Source: an uncultured Acidobacteriota bacterium
GTDB lineage: Bacteria > Acidobacteriota > Thermoanaerobaculia > Multivoradales > SZUA-115
Assembly (NCBI GenBank): GCA_963805975.1
Contig: CAWDVR010000005.1
Span: 320,001-384,000 of the forward strand
Reading direction: 5' to 3'
DNA length: 64,000 nt
How positions within the stretch are numbered: position 1 is the stretch's first letter; every line of letters begins with the position of its first letter. Shown piece by piece: positions 19,802 to 32,275 of the stretch. Below the pieces are notes generated by a model that searched no databases, was not told where the DNA came from, and worked only from the letters and a program-made list of their open reading frames with translations. The position numbers were made by a program, and so were the translations under genes.

Positions 19802-20824
19802 TCACCCGGTCCCGCCGGCCGGTGCTCGCCGGCTGTCCATTTTCTCGATGAGAGTCCGTTCCTCATAGGCGTACTCGGCGAGGACGCCGGTGGTGAACGC
19901 CCACACGCAGACCAGCCAGAGGACGATCTTCAGGGGCAGCGCGAGCGTGGTGGCAAAGAGCTGGATCACCGGGTCGTCGAAGGAGCCGGCGGCGGGCTGC
20001 ATGATCGCGTACACGTAGAGCACCCCGATGGTGCCCGGGCCTGGGTTGAGGTGTTTGCTGCCGAGGCCGCCCACCACCAGCGCCAGGGCCACACCGCTCA
20101 GCATGCCGATGCCCGTCTCGGCCACTCGGATGAGGCTGGGCAGGGTCTTTCCGTATCCGAACCAGGCAGGCACCACGAAGAGCAGGACGATCCCGGTCGA
20201 TACGAAGCGGCTGAACAGCGGCTCGTGAGCAGCGCCCAGCAGGCCCTTCTGCCTGGGTCTGTCGGCTGGCTGCTCCGCGATCGTGATCTCCGCGAGCTCC
20301 AGGTAGAGCCAGAAGACCAGGAGCGCGGTCACCGAGCTCAAGGTGGTGATGAAAGCGCTGTCGAACTCGTTCGGCTGGTTTTGCAGGCTGAGGCCCATCA
20401 CGAGGTAGTGGACCGACCAGAAGAGGAACACGGCGACGAGGTTGAGCTGGATTCTCCGGCATGCCTTCTCGGTCACCCTTCTACGCTCCGGCGGGATCCT
20501 GACGCTCAACCGGAGGCCCGCGGGGTTGGCCTTGGGAGTGAAGAGCGCCAGCACCAGGCACACGGTCGCCTGCAAGAACATGAGAGTGGCGCGCGCCGGC
20601 CTCAGCGTCTCGAGGCGCGCCTCGATCTCGTCCAGGCCCAACGACAGCCACTGAGCCGGCTCGAGCAGGCCGACGGCACCTCCTGCCAGGGCCAGAGCAA
20701 TGACGCCCACGACCTTGTAGCGCGCCTGCGCACGGAGCGAGAAGACCCAGGCCAGGAACGTGGATTGAGAGGGGCCTCGAGAGGTCTCCTCACCCGGTCG
20801 ATCCTCGTCTTTGGACTCACTCAT
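19802..20824 (-). CDS. Uncharacterised polytopic membrane protein
   Basis: ATG 20824 with a GAGGAG RBS; roughly 8 hydrophobic segments. Confidence 0.65.
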   Translation of the reverse strand: MSESKDEDRPGEETSRGPSQSTFLAWVFSLRAQARYKVVGVIALALAGGAVGLLEPAQWLSLGLDEIEARLETLRPARATLMFLQATVCLVLALFTPKANPAGLRLSVRIPPERRRVTEKACRRIQLNLVAVFLFWSVHYLVMGLSLQNQPNEFDSAFITTLSSVTALLVFWLYLELAEITIAEQPADRPRQKGLLGAAHEPLFSRFVSTGIVLLFVVPAWFGYGKTLPSLIRVAETGIGMLSGVALALVVGGLGSKHLNPGPGTIGVLYVYAIMQPAAGSFDDPVIQLFATTLALPLKIVLWLVCVWAFTTGVLAEYAYEERTLIEKMDSRRAPAGGTG

Positions 20825-20952
20825 GGTGACTCCTCTCGCGGCGGTCGCTGGCCTGGGGGGCGCAGCGGCCACGAGACCGAGGCGCCAGCGAGGGGTTGCG
20901 CGCTCAGACCTTCCAAGAAGATTGCGGCATTCTAGAGCAAGGCCCTCATGTG

Positions 20953-22149
20953 TCAACGCGTGGCGCGCACCTTCTCCGCCACCCTCCGGTACGCCTCCCG
21001 AAACGGAACGCCCTCTTCCACCACCAGCCGGTAGGCCTCCTCGGCGGCGAAGAGGGAGGGGTCGAGCTGGGTTCGTTCGGGGTGGAAGCGGAGGCCGGGG
21101 AGGGCGTGGGCTAGGACGTCGAGGGTGGCCGTCGCGAGGTCGATGCCGCGGAAGAGCGGCGCTTTCAGGAGCTGGAGGTCACGGTGGTAGCCGGAGGGCA
21201 GCTTGGCGGTGACGGCCAGGGCCTCGACCAGGCAGGCGAGGGCCGTGGCGCCCCGGCCGCGCACCAGCTCGAAGACGTCCGGGTTCCGCTTCTGCGGCAT
21301 GATCGAGGAGCCGGTGGTCATCTCCTCGGGCAGGGTCACGAAACCCAGCTCCTGCATCGAGAAGAGCACCAGGTCCGCGGCGAGCTTCCCCAGATCCTGC
21401 ATCAGGAGCGTGATCTCGAAGAGGAGCTGCGCCTCGGCCTTGCCGCGGGAGAGCTGCACGGCGGTCACCGGCTCGTGGACCTCGGCGAAACCGAGCCGCG
21501 TGCGCGTCGCCTCGCGGTCGATCGGCAGCAGCGGCACGCCGTAGCCGGCCGCCGAGCCGAGGGGGTTCTTGTCCGCCCGGCGCGCCGCCGCCTCGAGGCC
21601 GACGGCGTCGTCCTCCAGCTCCGCGGCGAAGCCGCGCGCCCAGAGCGCCACCGAGCTCGGCATGGCGCGCTGCTGGTGGGTGTAGCCGGGCAGCAGCACC
21701 TCGCCCTGGCCCACCGCAATCCCTGCGAGCGCCGCCGCCACGGCGCGCGTACCGGCCGCGAGCCGCGGGATCGCGGCCTTCAGATACAGCCGCAGGGCGG
21801 CGAGCACCTGATCGTTGCGCGAGCGGCCGAGGTGGATGCGCCCGCCCGCCTCGCCGATCCGCGCCGTGAGCCGGTTCTCGAGCGCTGTATGCACGTCCTC
21901 GTCCGCCAGCTCGATGGCCCACTCGCCGCGCGCGTGCTCTCGGGCCAGCGCTTCGAGCCCGCCGCGGATCGCGTCGAGGTCCGCGGCCGAGAGCAGGCCC
22001 CGCTCGGAGAGCATCTCGGCGTGGGCGATCGAAGCGAGGACGTCGTAGAGCAGGAGCCGCGCGTCGAGCAGGTGGTCCTCGCCCGCGGTGTAGCGCAGGA
22101 CTTTTTCGTCGAGGCCGAGCTCGCCTTCCCTCTGCCAGAGCCGCGCCAT
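20953..22149 (-). CDS. argH: Argininosuccinate lyase (short form)
   Basis: EDVH, HLGRSRNDQ, LPGYTHQQ, TGSSIMPQKRNPDVFE and SGYHRDLQ motifs. Confidence 0.95.
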   Translation of the reverse strand: MARLWQREGELGLDEKVLRYTAGEDHLLDARLLLYDVLASIAHAEMLSERGLLSAADLDAIRGGLEALAREHARGEWAIELADEDVHTALENRLTARIGEAGGRIHLGRSRNDQVLAALRLYLKAAIPRLAAGTRAVAAALAGIAVGQGEVLLPGYTHQQRAMPSSVALWARGFAAELEDDAVGLEAAARRADKNPLGSAAGYGVPLLPIDREATRTRLGFAEVHEPVTAVQLSRGKAEAQLLFEITLLMQDLGKLAADLVLFSMQELGFVTLPEEMTTGSSIMPQKRNPDVFELVRGRGATALACLVEALAVTAKLPSGYHRDLQLLKAPLFRGIDLATATLDVLAHALPGLRFHPERTQLDPSLFAAEEAYRLVVEEGVPFREAYRRVAEKVRATR

Positions 22150-23225
22150 CAGAGGGGCCCCTGCGAGAGCCGGAGCACCAGCTCGATGTAGAAGCGCGCG
22201 CCGTCGAGGACCTCCTCCTCGTACACGTGCTCGTCGATGGTGTGCGAGCGCTCGCTCTGTCCCGGCCCTACCTTGATCGCCGGGATGCCGCCGAGGAGCG
22301 CCCAGTCGGAGAGCGTGGCCGAGCCGTAGGTCCGGGCTGCCGGCCGCGCGGCCCTGGCGGCTTGGAAGACGGCCGAGCCCTCCGGCGTCTCCCGCGGCGC
22401 GAAGCGCTCCGAGGCGATCCGTACCTCGCCCTGGACCAGTGCCTGGAGGCGGGCGATGACCTCGTGGGGCGGCAGAGCTGGCGTGGTGCGCACGTCGAGG
22501 ATCGCCGAGGCATGCGCGGGCACCGCGTTCCGGGCCTCGCCGGCCCGCACTACCGTGGGCTCGAGGGTGGTGGCGCCGAGCCAGGGGTGGGCGGGCTCGA
22601 GGTCGAGGGCCTCGAGCGCCACCAGGTCGCGCGCCAGGCGACGGGCGGCGTTGACCGCCCCGAGCTTCGCCGCATGCGCCGCGTGGCAAGCCTCGCCCTC
22701 CGCCACCAGCTCCAGGACGAGGAGGCCCTTCTGCGCCACGGCCAGGTCGAGCCCGGTGGGCTCGCCGATCACCGCCGTGCGTGGCTCGCGGCCGGTCGCC
22801 CGCAGATGCATGAGCACGCTCTCGGTGCCCACGCTCCGCGTCTCCTCGGCCTCGACCAGCGCCAGCGCCAGAGTGAAGGGCGGCGGCTCGTCGAGAAAGG
22901 CGAGAAACGCCGCGGCCATCGCCGCCACCGAAGCCTTGGCGTCGTTCGCCCCGAGGCCGATCACCTTCCCGCCTTCGCGGCGTGGCGTGAAAGGGTCGGC
23001 CGTCCAGCCGGGCGCCGGCGGCACGGTGTCGAGGTGGGTGTCGAAGAGCACCAGCGGCCCTCGGCCCACCGTCGCGAGCAGGCTCGCGCCCAGCCGCTCG
23101 ACCCTCGCACCTCGCTCCGTGAGCCAGCTCTCCATCCAGTCGGCGATCGGCCCTTCGCCGCCGGAGACCGAGGGGATGCCGACCAGCGAGCGGTGCAGCG
23201 CCAGGATCTCCTCGTCCGGGATCAT
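22149..23225 (-). CDS. argE: M20 acyl-ornithine/acyl-citrulline deacylase
   Basis: HLDTV, GLGANDAK, AEE, GEPT and SHTIDE metal-binding motifs; lies in the arg operon. Confidence 0.85.
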   Translation of the reverse strand: MIPDEEILALHRSLVGIPSVSGGEGPIADWMESWLTERGARVERLGASLLATVGRGPLVLFDTHLDTVPPAPGWTADPFTPRREGGKVIGLGANDAKASVAAMAAAFLAFLDEPPPFTLALALVEAEETRSVGTESVLMHLRATGREPRTAVIGEPTGLDLAVAQKGLLVLELVAEGEACHAAHAAKLGAVNAARRLARDLVALEALDLEPAHPWLGATTLEPTVVRAGEARNAVPAHASAILDVRTTPALPPHEVIARLQALVQGEVRIASERFAPRETPEGSAVFQAARAARPAARTYGSATLSDWALLGGIPAIKVGPGQSERSHTIDEHVYEEEVLDGARFYIELVLRLSQGPL

Positions 23226-24130
23226 CCTTCTGCCCCCGCCGAGCCGTGCGTGGACGGCGCGGCCATGTTCTCCACCACCATCGTGCCGCAGCCCTCGTTG
23301 GTGAACACCTCGACCAGCAGGCTGTCCGCACCGGCGCAGGAGACCACGTGCGCGCGCTGGACCCCGCCGCGGATGGCGGCCGCGAGCGCCTCGGCCTTGG
23401 GCAGCATGCCGCCCGACAGCGCGCCGCGGCGCTGCAGATCGGCGAGGCCGGCGAGGTCGGTGTAGGAGACGAGAGAGCCGGGGTCGTCCAGGCGCTCGAG
23501 GATGCCGGGAGCACCGGTCAGGAGGATCAGCTTCTCGGCCCCGAGGGCCACGGCGAGCGCCGCCGCCACGGTGTCGGCGTTGACGTTCAGGAGCGTGCCG
23601 TCGTCGGCCGCGGAGAGCGGGGAGACCACCGGCAGCAGGCCGGCGTCGAGCAGGGTGGTGAGCACGCGCGGCTCGACCCGGGCGATGTCGCCCACCAGGC
23701 CGAAGTCCACCACCTCGGAGCCCACCGCGACCGGCGGCCGGCGGCGGGCGCGCACCAGGCCGGCGTCGACGCCCGAGAGGCCCACGGCCGGCAGGTCGAG
23801 GCCGCGGCAGAGAGCGAGGAGCCGGGTGTTGACCGAGCCGTTCAGCACCATCGCCGCCACGTCCAGGGCCTTCTGGTCCGTCACCCGACGGCCGGCCACG
23901 ATGCGGGGCTCGGAGCCCAGGGCCCACGCCAGCTCGGTGGACTGCGGGCCGCCGCCGTGCACCAGCACGACGCGGATGCCCACGCGCCAGAGGACCTCCA
24001 CCTGCTCCAGGAGCCTCTGGGCGCGCCCTTCCTCGACGAACGCCTCGCCGCCGGCCTTGAGCACGAAGGTCTTGCCCTGGAACATGCGGAGGTAGGGCAC
24101 GGCGTGCCGCAGCCCGGCGATCTCGGTCAT
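23222..24130 (-). CDS. argB: N-acylglutamate kinase
   Basis: KAGG, VHGGGPQ, GRRVTD, NVNADT and GGMLPK motifs; no fused GNAT domain. Confidence 0.92.
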   Translation of the reverse strand: MTEIAGLRHAVPYLRMFQGKTFVLKAGGEAFVEEGRAQRLLEQVEVLWRVGIRVVLVHGGGPQSTELAWALGSEPRIVAGRRVTDQKALDVAAMVLNGSVNTRLLALCRGLDLPAVGLSGVDAGLVRARRRPPVAVGSEVVDFGLVGDIARVEPRVLTTLLDAGLLPVVSPLSAADDGTLLNVNADTVAAALAVALGAEKLILLTGAPGILERLDDPGSLVSYTDLAGLADLQRRGALSGGMLPKAEALAAAIRGGVQRAHVVSCAGADSLLVEVFTNEGCGTMVVENMAAPSTHGSAGAEG

Positions 24131-25137
24131 GGTCGAACCTCCCCCAGCAGGCGATGGAGCACGGCCATCTGCACCCAGAGCCGGTTGTGGGCCTGTCGGA
24201 CGACGGCGCTCCGCGGGCCGTCGAGCACCTCGTCGGCCACCACCACGTTGCGCCGCACGGGCAGGCAGTGCAGGAAGCGGCACTCGGGCGCGGCGCCGGC
24301 GAACCACGGCTCCGCCACGCACCAGCCGGCGAGGCCGGCCCGGAGCTCGGCCTCGCGCGCCGCGTCGCCGTAGCACTCGGCCGAGGCCCAGGACTTGGCG
24401 TAGACGACGTGCGCCCCGGCGAGCGCTTCCACGCGGGAGGAGGTCTCGGCGAGCGAGCCGCCGGAGGCCGCCGCGGCGCGGCGCGCCTTCTCCATCACCG
24501 GCGCCGGCAGGGAGTGGGACTCCGGCCGCAGCACCGTCACATCCATGCCCCGCGCCGCCGCCATGTGCACCACGGCGGCGGGCACGGCGAGCGGCAGCGG
24601 CTTGGGGTGGTGGGCCCAGGTGAGGACGAAGCGGCCGCCGCGCGCCGGGACGCCCAGATCGTCCAGCGTCTTCCAGTCGGCGAGCGCCTGGCAGGGATGG
24701 TTGGCGGCGGACTCGAGGTTGACGAGCGGCACGGGGCAGAGGTCCGCGATGGTGCCGAAGGTGCGCTCGGCGAGGTCGACCTCCAAGTCCTCGAGCCCGG
24801 CGAACGAGCGCACGCCGAGCACGTCGGCATAGCCGGCGAGCACCGGGATCGCCTCGCGCACGTGCTCGGCCGCGGCGCCGTCCATCTTCACTCCCGGGCG
24901 CGTCTCGAGCTTCCAGCTTCCCTGGCCGGGCGCGATGACGAACGACGAGCCGCCCAACCGTGCCATGGCGGACTGCATCGACGCCAGCGTGCGGAGCGAC
25001 GGGTCGAAGAACAGGAGCCCCAGCACCTTGCCGGCGAGCGCTGCGGGCTCCGGCTGCTTCTCCAATCGCGCCGCGAGCGCCAGCAGGCCTGCGATCTCTT
25101 CTCGGCCGAGGTCGGCCAGGTCGAGGAAGCTCTTCAT
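24127..25137 (-). CDS. argF: N-acyl-ornithine transcarbamylase (ArgF'; AOTCase/SOTCase family)
   Basis: PSLRT, MDGAAAEH, HPCQ, TWAHHPKPLP and HCLPVRRN motifs, which differ from canonical OTCase. Confidence 0.92.
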   Translation of the reverse strand: MKSFLDLADLGREEIAGLLALAARLEKQPEPAALAGKVLGLLFFDPSLRTLASMQSAMARLGGSSFVIAPGQGSWKLETRPGVKMDGAAAEHVREAIPVLAGYADVLGVRSFAGLEDLEVDLAERTFGTIADLCPVPLVNLESAANHPCQALADWKTLDDLGVPARGGRFVLTWAHHPKPLPLAVPAAVVHMAAARGMDVTVLRPESHSLPAPVMEKARRAAAASGGSLAETSSRVEALAGAHVVYAKSWASAECYGDAAREAELRAGLAGWCVAEPWFAGAAPECRFLHCLPVRRNVVVADEVLDGPRSAVVRQAHNRLWVQMAVLHRLLGEVRP

Positions 25138-25147
25138 GCCAGGCTCC

Positions 25148-26332
<1,185 letters not shown>

Positions 26333-26351
26333 GGCGGCTCCTCGCGGGCTG

Positions 26352-27440
26352 CTACACCCAACCGAGGCCGGGCTGGGTGAGGCCGGTCGACTCGGGCAGG
26401 CCGTAGAGACGGTTCATCCACTGCACGGCGCCACCCGCCGCGCCCTTCACCAGGTTGTCGAGGGCCGAGAACGCCACCAGCGTGCCGTTCGCCACCGCCA
26501 GGCCGATGCGGCAGCGGTTGGTGCCCACCACCTCGGTGAGGCGCGGCGGCTCGGCCGAGACCGAGACGAACGGCGAGCCGGCGTAGAAGCCGGCCACCGC
26601 CGCCACGGCCTCCTCGGTGGTGAGGTGCCGGGCGGTCTGCGCCGTGAGCGTGGCGTAGATGCCGCGCGCGAACGGGCCGGACTGCGGCACGAACAGGATC
26701 TCGGCCGGCACCGTGGTCGCGGCCCGGATCAGGGCGCGCATCTCGGGCTGGTGGCGGTGGGCGAGCGGCTTGTAGGCGAAGAGGTTGGCGTGGCGCTCCG
26801 GGTGGTGGGTCGACGGACCCGGCGTGCGGCCGGAGCCGGTCGAGCCGGTGGTGGCGACCACCGTGATCCGCGGCTCGACCAGGCCGAGCGCCACGAGCGG
26901 CACGGCGGCGAGCACCACCGCGGTGGTGAAGCAGCCGGGGTGGGCGGCGTGGCGCACGTTGGCCTCTCCCAGGTGCTCGGGCAGCGCGCAGGTGAACTCG
27001 GCCAGGCGGTGGGGCGCGCCGTGCGCCTGGCCATAGACCTGCTCGAACTCCGCGGCCGAGGCGTAGCGGAAGTCGGCGGAGAGATCGACCACCGCGGCCT
27101 CGCTGCCCGCGGCCTCGGCGGCGCGGAGCAGGCGATCGACCAGCGGCGCCGAGGTGCCGTGCGGCGTGGCGGAGAACACGGCCACCCGCGGCCTCGCGGC
27201 CACCAGCTCTTCGAGCTCGGCGAGGGCGTGGAACCTGGCCTGCGGCCAAGCCGCGGCGAGGTGCGGGAAGGCCGCGGCCACGGCCTGGCCGGCCTGGCTC
27301 TCGGACACTGCCGCGACCTCGCCCAGCAGCGGATGCCCGAGGACCGGGTGCGCGGCGAGGAGACGCAGCAGCTCCCCGGCCACGTAGCCGGAGCCGCCCA
27401 GCACGATCGTCTGGACGCCGTCTGCCGCGGGCGCGGTCAC
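26352..27440 (-). CDS. argC: N-acyl-gamma-glutamyl-phosphate reductase
   Basis: GGSGYVAGE, ATPHG, DLSADFR, HPGCF, HRHQPE and DNLVKGAAG motifs. Confidence 0.94.
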   Translation of the reverse strand: MTAPAADGVQTIVLGGSGYVAGELLRLLAAHPVLGHPLLGEVAAVSESQAGQAVAAAFPHLAAAWPQARFHALAELEELVAARPRVAVFSATPHGTSAPLVDRLLRAAEAAGSEAAVVDLSADFRYASAAEFEQVYGQAHGAPHRLAEFTCALPEHLGEANVRHAAHPGCFTTAVVLAAVPLVALGLVEPRITVVATTGSTGSGRTPGPSTHHPERHANLFAYKPLAHRHQPEMRALIRAATTVPAEILFVPQSGPFARGIYATLTAQTARHLTTEEAVAAVAGFYAGSPFVSVSAEPPRLTEVVGTNRCRIGLAVANGTLVAFSALDNLVKGAAGGAVQWMNRLYGLPESTGLTQPGLGWV

Positions 27441-28573
27441 GAAGCCAGCTCCGTGGCAGCCTTGGGCGCGACCGGGCCTTCGGCCGGGGGCGCGGCCGGC
27501 GCGGCCCGGCGCGAGGGGAAGAGGCGCGCCAGCACCCGCTCCGCCAGCTCCTCGGCGTGCGTACGTGCGTTGATCGCCGGCACGCCGGCCGTCTCCTCGA
27601 TGATCCGCGTGCCCGCCAGGTTGTCGCTCGCCGGCCCGGTCACGGCCAGGGGGCTGAGGCCGTAGCGGTCGGCGAGGAGGCGCACGCCGCCCCAGGCGGC
27701 CACCGGGTCGTTGGCCGCGAGCAGCACGGCGGAGAAGGCGGCGCGGACCTCGGGATCGGCGAGGATCGCGTCCACGCCGTAGGCGCCGAGGAGCCCGTCC
27801 CCCAGCTCCACCACGATCACGTCCGGCCCGCCGGCCGCGAGGTCGGTCAAGAGCGTGCGGGTGATGGCCGCGGCGTTGGCGGCGGTGGTCGAGACCACGC
27901 CGAGGTCGGTGAAGAGCGCCGTCTTCCGGGCGCCGGCGTCCTCCATTGCCAGCACGTCGCGGTAGAGCGAGACGCCCGTGGCCTTGAAGGCGTCCACCGT
28001 CAGGCCGGCGTGGGCGAGCCGCTGCACCAGCGCGCAGGCGGCGGCCGTCTTCCCCGAGTTCATGCACGAGCCGACGATCGCCACCACCGGCACGCTGCGC
28101 CCGTCGGGCCGAGCCAGGTTGAGGCGCGGCGCCGCGGGCAGCGGGCGCTCGCCCACGCGGGCCGGTACCCCCACCCGCTCGGCGAGGAACGGGAAGGAGA
28201 GCACCGCGCCGAGCACCTCGCACTCGAAGGGCTGCCCGAGGTCCGGGTTGATCGAGTCGCAGTGGCCCAGCACGCCGCCGGTGTTGAGCACCTGGACGCG
28301 GTCACCCGGTGCCAGGCTCGTCGGCAGGTGCCCGGAGTAGCCGAAGAGCGCGTTGCGGTGCCCCAGAGCACCGGCCAGCACGTCGCCGCGCTTCACCAGC
28401 GCCAGCCGGCCGCTCGGCAGCTCGAGCTGGTTGTAGGTGCTCTTGTCGGAGAGCACGCGGACCGCCACCACCACACCCTCCTCGCAGGGGATGCGCGCGT
28501 CCACCAGCACCTCCCGCTTCAAACGGCAGGCGCGGGTCACGGAGGCGATCTTGTCGAGCAGCACCGGCTTCAC
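27437..28573 (-). CDS. DUF1611/DgcN-like P-loop protein embedded in the arg operon
   Basis: IVGSCMNSGKT, KATG, DAGA...DLGVVST and VELGDGLLG motifs; start and stop overlap argG and argC. Confidence 0.7.
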   Translation of the reverse strand: MKPVLLDKIASVTRACRLKREVLVDARIPCEEGVVVAVRVLSDKSTYNQLELPSGRLALVKRGDVLAGALGHRNALFGYSGHLPTSLAPGDRVQVLNTGGVLGHCDSINPDLGQPFECEVLGAVLSFPFLAERVGVPARVGERPLPAAPRLNLARPDGRSVPVVAIVGSCMNSGKTAAACALVQRLAHAGLTVDAFKATGVSLYRDVLAMEDAGARKTALFTDLGVVSTTAANAAAITRTLLTDLAAGGPDVIVVELGDGLLGAYGVDAILADPEVRAAFSAVLLAANDPVAAWGGVRLLADRYGLSPLAVTGPASDNLAGTRIIEETAGVPAINARTHAEELAERVLARLFPSRRAAPAAPPAEGPVAPKAATELAS

Positions 28574-29799
28574 GACGGACCCTCCGCACCGGCGCGGCCC
28601 GCCTTGGACCCAGCACGAGAGTAGAGCTGGCCGGGGAGGCCCAGCAGGCGCGAGAAGCCGCGCGCGTCCTCGGCCGTCCACTCGCCGGCCGCTTCGCCGT
28701 AGGTGCCGCGCGAGGCGGCCATCAGCGAGTGCGGCGAGGAGACGCCCTCGACGAACAGGCTCCCCGGCCGCAACAGCAGGAAGACCTCGCCCGTCACCCG
28801 CGCCTGGGAGGAGGTGAGCAGCGCCTCGATGTCGCGGCAGGCGGGCTCCAAGTGCTGGCCCTCGTGCACCAGGTCTCCATAGATGGCGGCGACGCCGTCC
28901 TTCACCCGCTGCTGGCGGCCGGTCAAGGTGAGCTTCTCGAGCTCGCGGTGGGCGGTGATCAGCACCTCGGCGGCCGGCGCCTCGAAGGCGACGCGGCCCT
29001 TGGAGCCCAGGATGGTGTCCCCGAGATGGATGCCGCGGCCGATGCCGTAGGGCCCCGCCTCGGCCTCCACGCGCTCGATGAGCGCCACCGGCGAGAGCGC
29101 CTCGCCGTCCCAGGCCACGGGGACCCCCTGCTCGAAGAAGAGGATGTGGCGGGACGGCGGCAGGGGGCTCTCGAAAGCGCCGCGCGACAGCACCCAGGCC
29201 TCCTCCGGGATGGAGGCCGCGCTCCCCAGCGTCTCCCGGCCGCCGATCGTCACTCCCCAGAGGCCACGGTTGATCGAGTACGCCGAGCCCCGCTGCGGCA
29301 CGGCGAGGCCGCGCGCCTCGAGGTAGGCCACCTGCTCGGCACGCGGCTTGGGATCGTCGCGCACCGGCGCCAGGATGGTGAGCTCCGGCGCCAGCGTCGA
29401 GAGTGCCACCTCGAAGCGCACCTGGTCGTTGCCGGCCGCGGTGCAGCCGTGGGCCACGGTGGTCGAGGAAAGCTCGCGCGCGGCGCGCGCCACCTCCTGC
29501 GCCTGGATCACCCGCTCCGCGCCCACCGACAGCGGGTAGAGCTGGCCGCGCCGCACGTTGCCGGCGACGAGGTGACGGAGCACGCGGTCGAAGAACATCT
29601 GCCGCGCCTCGACGCGCAGGTGGCGGACGGCCCCCAGCGCCGCGGATTGCGCCGCGAGTCGCTCGGCGGCCTCGCCGTCGAGCCCGCCGGTGTCCACCGT
29701 CACCGTGACCACCGGCCGCCGGTGGGTCTCGGCCAGCCAGGGCACGCAGTAGGAAGTGTCCAGCCCGCCCGAGAAGGCGAGGACGATGGGCTCGGTCAT
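28570..29799 (-). CDS. argG: Argininosuccinate synthase
   Basis: LAFSGGLDTS, YPLSV, HGCTAAGNDQVRF and KGRVAFEAP motifs. Confidence 0.96.
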   Translation of the reverse strand: MTEPIVLAFSGGLDTSYCVPWLAETHRRPVVTVTVDTGGLDGEAAERLAAQSAALGAVRHLRVEARQMFFDRVLRHLVAGNVRRGQLYPLSVGAERVIQAQEVARAARELSSTTVAHGCTAAGNDQVRFEVALSTLAPELTILAPVRDDPKPRAEQVAYLEARGLAVPQRGSAYSINRGLWGVTIGGRETLGSAASIPEEAWVLSRGAFESPLPPSRHILFFEQGVPVAWDGEALSPVALIERVEAEAGPYGIGRGIHLGDTILGSKGRVAFEAPAAEVLITAHRELEKLTLTGRQQRVKDGVAAIYGDLVHEGQHLEPACRDIEALLTSSQARVTGEVFLLLRPGSLFVEGVSSPHSLMAASRGTYGEAAGEWTAEDARGFSRLLGLPGQLYSRAGSKAGRAGAEGPS

Positions 29800-30260
29800 G
29801 GTGAGGGCTCCGGGGCCTGGGTGAGGAGCAGGCCGAAATGGTCCAGGAACCGCGCCTGGGCGCGGGCGTTGGCGGTGGCGACGAAGATCGTGTCGTCGCC
29901 GGCGATGGTGCCCGCCACCTCCGGCCAGCCGGCGCGGTCGATGGCGAGCGCCACGGTCTGCGCGGTGCCCACCGCCGTTTGCACCACCGCCAGGTGGGGC
30001 CCGGCCGGCCGCACGCGGCGCGCGAACCGCGCGGCGGAGGCGAGATCCTCGTCCGAGCCGCGCTCGCCGCCCGGGGGCAGGTAGCGGCCTCCCACCTTGC
30101 CCACCCCCAGGTAGCGGAGGTCCCGGCTGACGCTCGACTGCGTGGCCTCGATGCCGCGCTCGCCGAGCATCGCAACCAGCTCCTCCTGGCTCGTCACCCG
30201 GCGGGTGCGGAGCAGGTAGATGAGGGCTTCGCGGCGGGCTTGATGAAGGTCGGGTTCCAT
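29796..30260 (-). CDS. argR: Arginine repressor
   Basis: SQEEL, TQSSVSRDL and GTIAGDDTIF motifs. Confidence 0.95.
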   Translation of the reverse strand: MEPDLHQARREALIYLLRTRRVTSQEELVAMLGERGIEATQSSVSRDLRYLGVGKVGGRYLPPGGERGSDEDLASAARFARRVRPAGPHLAVVQTAVGTAQTVALAIDRAGWPEVAGTIAGDDTIFVATANARAQARFLDHFGLLLTQAPEPSP

Positions 30261-30267
30261 GGCGCCT

Positions 30268-30314
30268 CGCGTAAGTATGCGAACAATGGTGCATGAGATT
30301 GCATTTTAAGTCAA
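30268..30314 (-). promoter_or_regulatory. Tandem ARG-box-like operators overlapping a putative promoter
   Basis: CGCGT-aagt-ATGCG (30268-30281) and TGCAT-gaga-TTGCA (30290-30303), 22 bp apart, in an AT-rich patch; TTGACT on the minus strand at 30309-30314. Confidence 0.55.
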
Positions 30315-32260
30315 GGGGCCGAGGCCTCGCTCGACGAGCAACCGGAGTCTTCGCTCTCCCTCGGCCGCGAGGAGATCGAGAACCTGCCCCACCTCGGCGG
30401 GGACGTGTTCCGGGCCACCTCGCTCCTGCCCGGGGTGGCGGCCAACGACGTCTCCGCCCAGTTCAGCGTGCACGGCGGGCGCCGCGACGAGGTCAAGGTG
30501 CTGCTCGACGGGCAGGAGATCTACGGCACCTTCCACCTCAAGGACTACGACAACGCGCTGTCGATCGTCTCCTCCCGCATCCTCGCCGGTGCCGACCTCT
30601 CGACCGGCGCCTACCCGGCGGACCACGGCGACCGCATGAGCGGGGTGCTCGATTTGACGACCACCGAGCCCGCGGGCGGCAGGCAGTTCGTGCTCGGTCT
30701 CTCGGTGCTCGACCTGCAAGCCTCGGCCGCGGACCGCTTCGCCGAAGACCGCGGCGCCTGGCTCGCGACCGGCCGCCGTGGCTCCCTCGATCTCGCCGGT
30801 GATGCGATCGGCAAGGAGAACCCGCGGTTCTGGGACCTGTTCGGCAAGGTCTCGCTGGCGGGCGCTCTCGGCCAGGTGAGCGGCCGCGTGCTCGCCGCGG
30901 GCGACGGGCTGGCGATCGACACCGAGGCGGAGGACGGCTTCGAGCGCCTGGCGAACGACTATCAGAGCACCTACGGCTGGCTCAACCACCAGGCCGGGGG
31001 CAGGCGGCTGCTGGTCGAGACCCTCGCCTCGTGGTCCGGGATCGACACCGACCGCGGCGGCGCCGGCAGCGACGAGGAAGGCGGCCACCAGCTCGTGGAT
31101 CGGCGCGACCTCGAGGTGCTGGCGCTCGCCCAGACCTGGAACCTCGAGATCGCGTCGCGGCACCTCGCCCGCTGGGGATGGGAGGTCCGCGGCTACGACG
31201 TCGCCTTCGACTACGCGAAGCGGCTGGACCCGGACGTAGTGGTGATCGCGCCCTTCTCTCCTCCCCGCCGCATCGAGCACGGCCTCTCGGGTCGCTCTCG
31301 GGCGAGCACCTGGGGTTCTGGGCGAGCGACCGCTTCTCTTGGCGCAACCGGCTGACGGCCGAGCTGGGGCTACGCTACGACCGCCACACTGCCACCGACG
31401 ACACGCTGCTTTCCCCGCGCGTGAACCTGGCGTGGCAGTTGGGGGAGCGGAGCGTGGTGCGGGCGGCCTGGGGGCGGTTCTTCCAGAGCCAGCGCCCGTA
31501 CGAGCTCGAGGTCGAGGACGGGGAGAGCACGCTCTCCCGGCCGAGCGCGCGGCGCACTCGGTGCTCGGCTACGAAGCCCTGCTGCCGGCTAACCGGCTCG
31601 GCCTCGAGGCCGTCGGGTCGAGCTCTTCCGGCGCGACGTCGAGGATCCGCGCCCGCGCTACGAGCACCTGCTCGAGCCGGTGAACTTCTTCCCCGAGATC
31701 GAGCCCGACCGGGTGCGCATCGCCCCCGAGCGCAGCGCGGCCGAAGGGATCGAGCTGCTGGTGAAGGGCAGCCACGGCGAGCGCTTCGACTGGTGGCTCG
31801 CCTACTCCTACGCCCGCGCCAGGGACCGGCTGGCGGGCGAGAAGGTACCGCGATCGCTCGACCGCGGCACACGTTGAACGTGGCGCTCAACGACCGGCTG
31901 GGGAAAAGCTGGTGTTGAACCTCGCCTGGCGGTACCACACCGGCTGGCCCACGACCCCGGTCGAGGCGCGCCTGGTGCCGGACCCCGAGGATCCGGAGGA
32001 GCTCGAGCTGGTCGGGGTGTTCGGGCGTCTGAACAGCCGGCGCCTGCCCGCCTACCACCGCCTGGACCTGCGCGCTGAGCCGCCGCTGGGAGCTCTCCGC
32101 GAGCCGGCTGACGGCCTATCTCGACGTCCAGAACCTCTACGACCGCAGAAACCTCGCCGGCTTCGACGTCTCGCTCGACGAGGGCGCGGGCGTGGTGGAG
32201 CTCGAGAACGAGGACTGGCCGGGGATCTTTCCGTCGGTGGGTATTACCTGGACTTTTTAG
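30311..32260 (+). pseudogene. TonB-dependent receptor, 5'-truncated and multiply frameshifted
   Basis: Plug (LPHLGGDVFR..LLPGV, SVHGG), LSPRVNLAW, RLPAYHRLDLR and terminal GITWTF* are spread over several frames. Confidence 0.75.
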
Positions 32261-32275
32261 AGGGGGCCTTCTGAG

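Follow-up and report, generated by a model that had tools for sequence, protein, structure and literature searches.

The window analysed here, a stretch of 64,000 nucleotides (nt) from an uncultured member of the Acidobacteriota, corresponds to C5:320001-384000 of genome G000, an assembly of 5.36 Mb in 6 contigs. On its minus strand, at positions 20953-30260, lie nine genes in the order argR-argG-X-argC-argD-argF'-argB-argE-argH, where X denotes the one gene to which no function had been assigned. Order and coordinates were confirmed, and six of the eight junctions overlap (five by 4 nt and one by 1 nt), the remaining gaps being 19 and 10 nt; the layout with mostly overlapping stop and start codons, first described in an earlier note on this DNA, is therefore borne out. 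The operon has no recognisable gene for the first step of arginine synthesis, and our subject is X as the candidate for that step. We consider it likely that X has the step-1 role in the pathway, and on the evidence of its sequence we tentatively propose that it is an ATP-dependent succinate:L-glutamate ligase making N-succinylglutamate.

Among the other products of the operon (Table 1), ArgC, ArgF', ArgB and ArgH pass the NCBIfam cut-offs. ArgR, ArgG and ArgD have their own families as best NCBIfam match, yet stay under the cut-off, with the right Pfam domains present, and ArgE is an M20 hydrolase far below every NCBIfam cut-off, named from its context. Neither ArgB nor ArgH has a GNAT or NAT domain, so the absence of GNAT fusions reported earlier stands.

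Table 1. Genes of the arginine operon and the putative control region upstream of argR, in positions of the window
Feature	Assignment	Position	Strand	Basis
argR	arginine repressor, 154 aa	29796..30260	-	PF01316 and PF02863 over cut-off
argG	argininosuccinate synthase, 409 aa	28570..29799	-	PF00764 and PF20979; TIGR00032 261 bits, cut-off 268
X	candidate N-succinylglutamate synthase, 378 aa	27437..28573	-	fold matches, orthology, context
argC	N-acyl-glutamyl-phosphate reductase, 362 aa	26352..27440	-	TIGR01850 284 bits, cut-off 233.6
argD	N-acylornithine aminotransferase, 394 aa	25148..26332	-	PF00202; best NCBIfam NF002874, under cut-off
argF'	N-acylornithine carbamoyltransferase, 336 aa	24127..25137	-	NF003384 349 bits, cut-off 288
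argB	N-acylglutamate kinase, 302 aa, no NAT fusion	23222..24130	-	TIGR00761 205 bits, cut-off 151; PF00696 only
argE	argE-like M20 hydrolase, 358 aa, putative N-acylcitrulline deacylase (from context)	22149..23225	-	PF01546 and PF07687
argH	argininosuccinate lyase, 398 aa, no GNAT fusion	20953..22149	-	TIGR00838 307 bits, cut-off 279.5
putative promoter/operator	TTGACT hexamer 30314-30309; two ARG-box-like palindromes 30303-30290, 30281-30268	30268..30314	-	sequence

The earlier note had described a pathway with a hole at its first step, and as far as tested the hole extends to the whole of G000, which is 96.35% complete and may thus lack about 4% of its sequence. In profile searches, G000 gave no match to ArgJ (PF01960), to the short N-acetylglutamate synthase (NAGS) model PRK07757 or to LysW, each of which found its positive control; none to NAT (PF04768), for which the only positive control to match was another Acidobacteriota genome, G104; and none to the short-NAGS model PRK07922, whose control matched only under the cut-off. 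The sole match to ArgA (TIGR01890) was the operon's own ArgB, under the cut-off. Sixteen frames carry the GNAT domain PF00583, none near the NAGS cut-off (best 26 bits versus 280, CG3035 family); Campylobacter ArgO and the Bacteroidetes GNAT-type succinylglutamate synthase were covered by this general survey only, with no dedicated model. One GNAT (L133:2-562; G000:C2:182451-183011) lies over the cut-off for aminoglycoside 6'-N-acetyltransferase (NF043067, 148 versus 140 bits). The LysW-carrier route was rejected, because no LysW was found and both ArgB and ArgF' belong to the N-acyl type. Also rejected as a NAGS source was an argH-like gene (C5:175535-177139), by eye a lyase without GNAT tail, in another cluster; this second argininosuccinate-lyase-like gene, 38% identical to ArgH, is followed by an apparent pyridoxal-phosphate enzyme (L148:2536-5225; G000:C5:175535-178224), probably within a secondary-metabolite cluster. 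X itself lacks the GNAT/NAT and ArgJ domains of the known NAGS types (ArgA, NAGS-K, ArgJ, S-NAGS, ArgH(A), C-NAGS) and has a P-loop fold instead.

The genomic context of X points to arginine synthesis throughout. In the best 80 of 527 loci, X always stands in an arg cluster. In 78 of them argC follows immediately, and the remaining two loci end at that point. Of 7999 proteins scored, 6749 belong to the family at E 0.001; it is still labelled hypothetical, and has its nearest named homologues to X in the Thermoanaerobaculia. Across 201 Acidobacteriota genomes, a tally that takes in one unpublished genome (G023), the X profile matches 60, namely 53 of arg type (52 with E no higher than 1e-57, and G052, where a partial match adjoins argF') and 7 with distant relatives. 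ArgJ occurs in 51 of the 201 but in none of the 53 with arg-type X, where 13 would be expected under independence, and in 2 of the 7 with distant relatives; these counts are not a statistical test, related genomes being non-independent. Nor does ArgJ or ArgA occur in any of 25 further X genomes. Within the Acidobacteriota the exclusion of TIGR01890 is weak, because only one of the 201 genomes has ArgA. The phyletic profile proposed in the earlier note thus shows no genome with both arg-type X and ArgJ.

An ArgF' over its cut-off is found in 45 of the Acidobacteriota genomes, and X in 42 of these. Of the other three, G104 has Glu92 in ArgF' and an ArgB-NAT fusion, in G174 the contig starts inside argC, and G171 is taken up below. 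Conversely, 11 X genomes lack ArgF', and in six of seven fetched loci from such genomes X stands with argC-argD-argB or with argD-argB alone (L112, L113, L115-L117, L119); four that were checked each have two other carbamoyltransferases. This arrangement ties X to the early steps. Loci with X beside argC-argD-argB and no argF' nearby are L112-L119, L127, L048, L055, L059 and L070. In one protein of 626 residues (P0209, on 4 contigs) an X domain is fused to an ArgB-like kinase domain, which parallels the NAGS-kinase fusions. Of nine longer X proteins, those labelled ArgG, ArgD or ArgC were set aside as probable read-throughs of overlapping genes. Taken together, the arg context, the exclusion of ArgJ and ArgA and the X-argC-argD-argB core seen elsewhere support the earlier suggestion that X fills the gap.

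The distant relatives (L121-L126) keep the same GKT, Lys, Asp and Glu and have no arg genes nearby. Their neighbours are an M20 hydrolase and flavin reductases, or YheC/D-like and seven-transmembrane-fused ATP-grasp genes with an HlyD protein. M20 hydrolases adjoin the relatives in two of six loci and ATP-grasp proteins in another two, which fits amide chemistry loosely.

These distributions also bear on the possibility that X is an accessory nucleotide-binding protein, such as an activator of or scaffold for ArgB/ArgC, or a deacylase, while an unrecognised GNAT elsewhere carries out step 1. G000 encodes at least 16 GNATs, mostly unassigned, the ArgO and Bacteroidetes types having been covered by the general survey alone, and proteins of the signal recognition particle (SRP), HypB and ApbC types are close fold matches of X too. 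However, none of the 16 GNATs lies inside the operon or near the NAGS cut-off, no GNAT appears among the recurrent neighbour clusters scanned (about 10 top clusters across the 80 loci), and in genomes that have ArgJ or an ArgB-NAT fusion, ArgB and ArgC do without X. We regard an accessory role as improbable.

The nature of the acyl group can be read from ArgF'. The best match of ArgF' in the PDB is 3L02, with Ala at position 92, and alignment to 3L02 and related chains places Ala90 of ArgF' at the position of Glu92 in the Xanthomonas N-acetylornithine carbamoyltransferase. Replacement of this residue by Ala, Pro, Ser or Val is quoted in the GapMind study discussed below (PMC13759103) as switching specificity to N-succinylornithine. 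In X-linked ArgF' proteins the position is held by Ala, Ser, Val or Pro in 74 of 74 cases (67, 4, 2 and 1, respectively) and never by Glu; the 74 are the sequences from fetched loci that align over the site, the window's own loci left out. With its family score over the cut-off and a small residue other than Glu at this site, ArgF' classifies as a predicted N-succinylornithine transcarbamylase. The Ala at the acyl-specificity position thus suggests that the intermediates are succinylated, and given this ArgF' we think it very probable that they carry succinyl rather than acetyl groups.

A step-1 role for this family is already in print as a prediction, and the ATP-ligase mechanism is what we add. 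GapMind 2024/2026 (PMC13759103, S1B Text) lists ACG33_RS14135 of Steroidobacter as an alternative N-succinylglutamate synthase, with evidence given as 'no', on grounds of operon context, exclusion with the Pseudomonas ArgA and a weak Foldseek likeness to DgcN, an acetyltransferase. In the portion of that paper available to us, the term P-loop has no occurrence in the main text and ATP use is not mentioned. Besides an E. coli argA plasmid, the supplement contains the Steroidobacter plasmid pALF12, while no argA strain appears in Table 5. Compared by eye, the insert of pALF12 and the L065 protein agree in 55 of the 60 N-terminal positions and have the same P-loop motif, and the L065 protein is 59-60% identical to X; on this by-eye reading and this identity, X is an orthologue of ACG33_RS14135 (A0A127FCT3). 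The features of that family recur here: an arginine operon, a genome in which no ArgA was found, and an ArgF' with A, P, S or V at position 92. In the accessible literature, which omits most subscription papers including the DgcN paper, we did not find the ATP-ligase reading.

No Pfam or NCBIfam family lies over its cut-off in X, and sequence and profile searches of the PDB returned nothing significant. The predicted structure has a mean predicted local distance difference test score (pLDDT) of 91.5 and consists of a beta-rich N-terminal domain (about residues 1-150), which reaches a pLDDT of 35 when modelled alone without an alignment, and a P-loop domain (about 160-350). An Atlas search returned only unnamed or 'putative DUF1611' clusters. 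The closest folds are CTP synthase (Z 17.1, root-mean-square deviation (rmsd) 4.5, 197 residues aligned), DUF1611 (Z 16.7, rmsd 2.9, 181 aligned; a second entry at 16.3), BioD (Z 16.0, rmsd 3.1, 181 aligned) and DgcN (Z 15.1, rmsd 3.1, 182 aligned), and with Z between 15 and 17 for the model these four are effectively tied.

The P-loop of X reads GSCMNSGKT, with a Lys 21 residues beyond the GKT and E-x-G-D-G downstream. Among 150 diverse representatives, counting only those that cover each site, K175 is kept in 114 of 116, T176 in 112 of 115, K197 in 110 of 113, D206 in 105 of 109 and E256 in 93 of 95; the GKT, Lys and Glu are nearly as conserved in six distant relatives. K175, T176, K197 and E256 align to K15, T16, K37 and E115 of Escherichia coli BioD, residues that we take to be catalytic there; only six of ten BioD loci matched the pattern used in this comparison. 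Of the BioD residues, the P-loop and Lys37, and no others, are confirmed in the part of PMC8659263 that we could consult. The Walker A Thr is instead replaced by Arg or Met in all 13 DUF1611 proteins compared (14 loci were entered, one without a pattern match) and in 2G0T, 2OBN and DgcN (7XRJ). X has no match to PF07755 (DUF1611) at E 0.01, and G000 has none at all, as is also true of the dethiobiotin synthetase model proper (TIGR00347); two distant relatives of X reach about the PF07755 cut-off. The N-terminal domain of X and the N-terminal region of DUF1611 match with a profile probability of 1%. By Pfam and motif, X is outside DUF1611/DgcN.

The retention in X of the Walker A Lys-Thr, the second Lys and the Walker B Glu, where DgcN has lost the Thr, suggests an ATP-dependent ligase. 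In BioD, CTP synthase and formyl-tetrahydrofolate (formyl-THF) synthetase, ATP phosphorylates an oxygen of the substrate and an amine then displaces the phosphate, and the same steps would yield N-succinylglutamate from succinate. In the mechanism that we propose, X would bind Mg-ATP and activate succinate as succinyl-phosphate, which the amine of L-glutamate would attack within an X homodimer; ArgB, ArgC, ArgD, ArgF', ArgE, ArgG and ArgH would complete the path on N-succinylated intermediates, and ArgR would repress the operon. Provided that X does act at step 1, we lean slightly towards this chemistry, by analogy with these ligases. A homodimer modelled with ATP and Mg scored 0.48 (best control 0.01), above a mark that 20 of 30 solved dimers and one of 23 monomers also attain, a calibration that applies only roughly to the X model. 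Contacts agree between runs by at least 93%, with pLDDT of at least 91, and the predicted interface takes in residues 74-80, 106-111, 168-173 (the P-loop), 260-264 and 287-299.

Several observations weigh against this interpretation. One of the three dimer runs scored only 0.12, and the pass may reflect likeness to solved complexes. Although D206 is near-invariant in X, the residue placed opposite BioD D54 shifts between alignments. The P-loop residues occur also in GTPases and ATPases that are not ligases, such as SRP and HypB, and that lie within 2 Z units, and so indicate nucleotide binding at most; their conservation cannot separate a catalytic from a regulatory nucleotide site. In profile comparison X is slightly nearer to DUF1611 (90%) than to BioD (71-84%). 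The motif F-[K/R]-A-T-G is common to X and DgcN, which has Arg at the place of K197; an acetyltransferase activity is ascribed to DgcN, which means that glutamate can be acylated by this fold even when the Walker A Thr is missing. At the level of genomes, no X-ArgB fusion besides P0209 was found among 48 matches, and G171 has argC-argD-argF'-argB (L205:7955-12172) with Thr92 and no X, ArgJ, ArgA or NAT match; this genome is 98% complete in about 40 contigs, and either its step 1 is still unaccounted for or the assembly has a gap there.

Some of these points favour the main rival to the ATP ligase, which is that X is a succinyl-CoA:L-glutamate N-succinyltransferase like DgcN, its P-loop binding the diphosphate of coenzyme A (CoA) or a regulatory nucleotide. 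Such a CoA-transferase reading is implied by the GapMind study (PMC13759103). All evidence for the step-1 role and for succinyl applies to it equally, DUF1611 is both the best profile match and a top fold match of X, and, with the exception of the LysW carrier route, the step-1 enzymes covered in the accessible part of PMC4490483, which lists the known NAGS types, draw on acetyl-CoA or acetylornithine. The conserved Walker A Thr, lost in 16 of 16 DUF1611-type sequences, argues against it, as do the lack of a PF07755 match and the unmatched N-terminal domain. On balance we hold a CoA transferase to be rather unlikely, and prefer the ATP ligase.

The last part of the pathway is less uniform. The operon's argE is present in 20 of the 80 X loci, and a clear orthologue of its product in only 6 of 51 X genomes searched, which were chosen rather than sampled at random, 20 of them coming from loci without argE. 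In the other X genomes the best match is no better than E 1e-47, while five of eight ArgJ controls gave 1e-31 to 1e-35. The scarcity of orthologues leaves a second gap and keeps an acyl-recycling role for X open, and both count against our proposal. It also qualifies the linear ArgE/ArgF' pathway of the earlier note: the assignment of ArgF' stands, whereas the removal of the acyl group by ArgE is supported here by context only, an orthologue of this ArgE being absent from most of the X genomes that were checked. Among X genomes that lack the operon's argE, two of the best ArgE-type matches score over the cut-off for DapE, and DapE might double as the desuccinylase of the arginine pathway there. 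At L191:5567-6706, L192:5362-6486 and L194:5570-6601 the M20 protein that matches best is DapE or is encoded within a dap cluster.

An analogue of ArgJ, moving the acyl group from N-succinyl-citrulline or N-succinyl-ornithine to glutamate, alone or besides de novo synthesis, would cover step 1 and deacylation together. The mutual exclusion of X and ArgJ and the rarity of argE are what this would predict, and ArgE is also given as missing in S. denitrificans in PMC13759103. The M20 hydrolase kept in the G000 operon would, however, drain such a cycle, DapE or other M20 enzymes elsewhere in X genomes could desuccinylate, and transacylation needs no intact Walker A site. Cys170, considered as the acyl-enzyme nucleophile, was rejected, being kept in only 77 of 117 representatives. 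We therefore judge an ArgJ-like role to be improbable as well.

If X is an ATP ligase, arginine synthesis would have a new kind of initial reaction, carried out by a large family still labelled hypothetical, and an assay with acyl-CoA only would miss its activity. With the same reserve, we suggest that X may provide a CoA-independent, P-loop-ligase entry that replaces ArgA/ArgJ in about a quarter of the Acidobacteriota sampled, as well as in lineages within the Gammaproteobacteria, Gemmatimonadota and Myxococcota.

Upstream of argR, an ARG-box pattern occurs with at most two mismatches in 63 of 74 argR upstream regions, while the controls gave 54 of 320 for coding sequence and 208 of 1480 for shuffled sequence; a sigma-70 scan of the region upstream of argR passed no full promoter. 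ArgH is short, at 398 residues against a model of 455 positions, and its matches in related operons are short too. Directly downstream of argH lies a predicted membrane protein (19802-20956, minus strand; start probably near 20821) without a Pfam match. On the plus strand, 30405-32274 holds overlapping open reading frames in different frames, by eye fragments of one outer-membrane receptor gene; frameshifts or assembly errors may explain them. The large subunit of carbamoyl-phosphate synthase is encoded on a contig other than the operon's.

Compared with known systems, the locus is closest to that of ACG33_RS14135, with which it shares the family, the operon type and the ArgF' argument, and from which it differs by lying in a Thermoanaerobaculia-like Acidobacterium, as judged by the nearest named homologues, and by having argE inside the operon. 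X shares with DgcN and DUF1611 (7XRJ, 2OBN, 2G0T) the C-terminal P-loop fold (Z 15.1-16.7, rmsd about 3, 181-190 residues aligned) and the two-domain size, and with DgcN the [K/R]ATG motif and a putative role in amino-acid N-acylation. It differs from them in its GKT where they have GK-R/M (in a G-T-D-x-x-x-G-K-[R/M] loop), its lack of a PF07755 match and an N-terminal domain that has no profile match to theirs, and from DgcN in a biosynthetic L-Glu context as opposed to D-Glu catabolism. The ligase domains of BioD, CTP synthase and formyl-THF synthetase have in common with X the fold (Z 13-17), the Walker A Lys-Thr, the second Lys and the Walker B Glu, and the predicted X dimer involves the region that aligns to the GxINH segment of BioD; identity is 14-21%, TIGR00347 is not matched, X has the extra beta-rich N-terminal domain, and the substrates are others. 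Bacteroides makes succinyl-citrulline by a pathway that uses a GNAT-type succinyltransferase. As in that pathway and the acetyl-citrulline pathway of Xanthomonas, the ArgF' of G000 would carbamoylate an acylated ornithine before deacylation, whereas in G000 neither a Bacteroides-type succinyltransferase, as far as the general GNAT survey reaches, nor the ArgB-NAT fusion and Glu92 of Xanthomonas-type operons, seen here in G104, was found.

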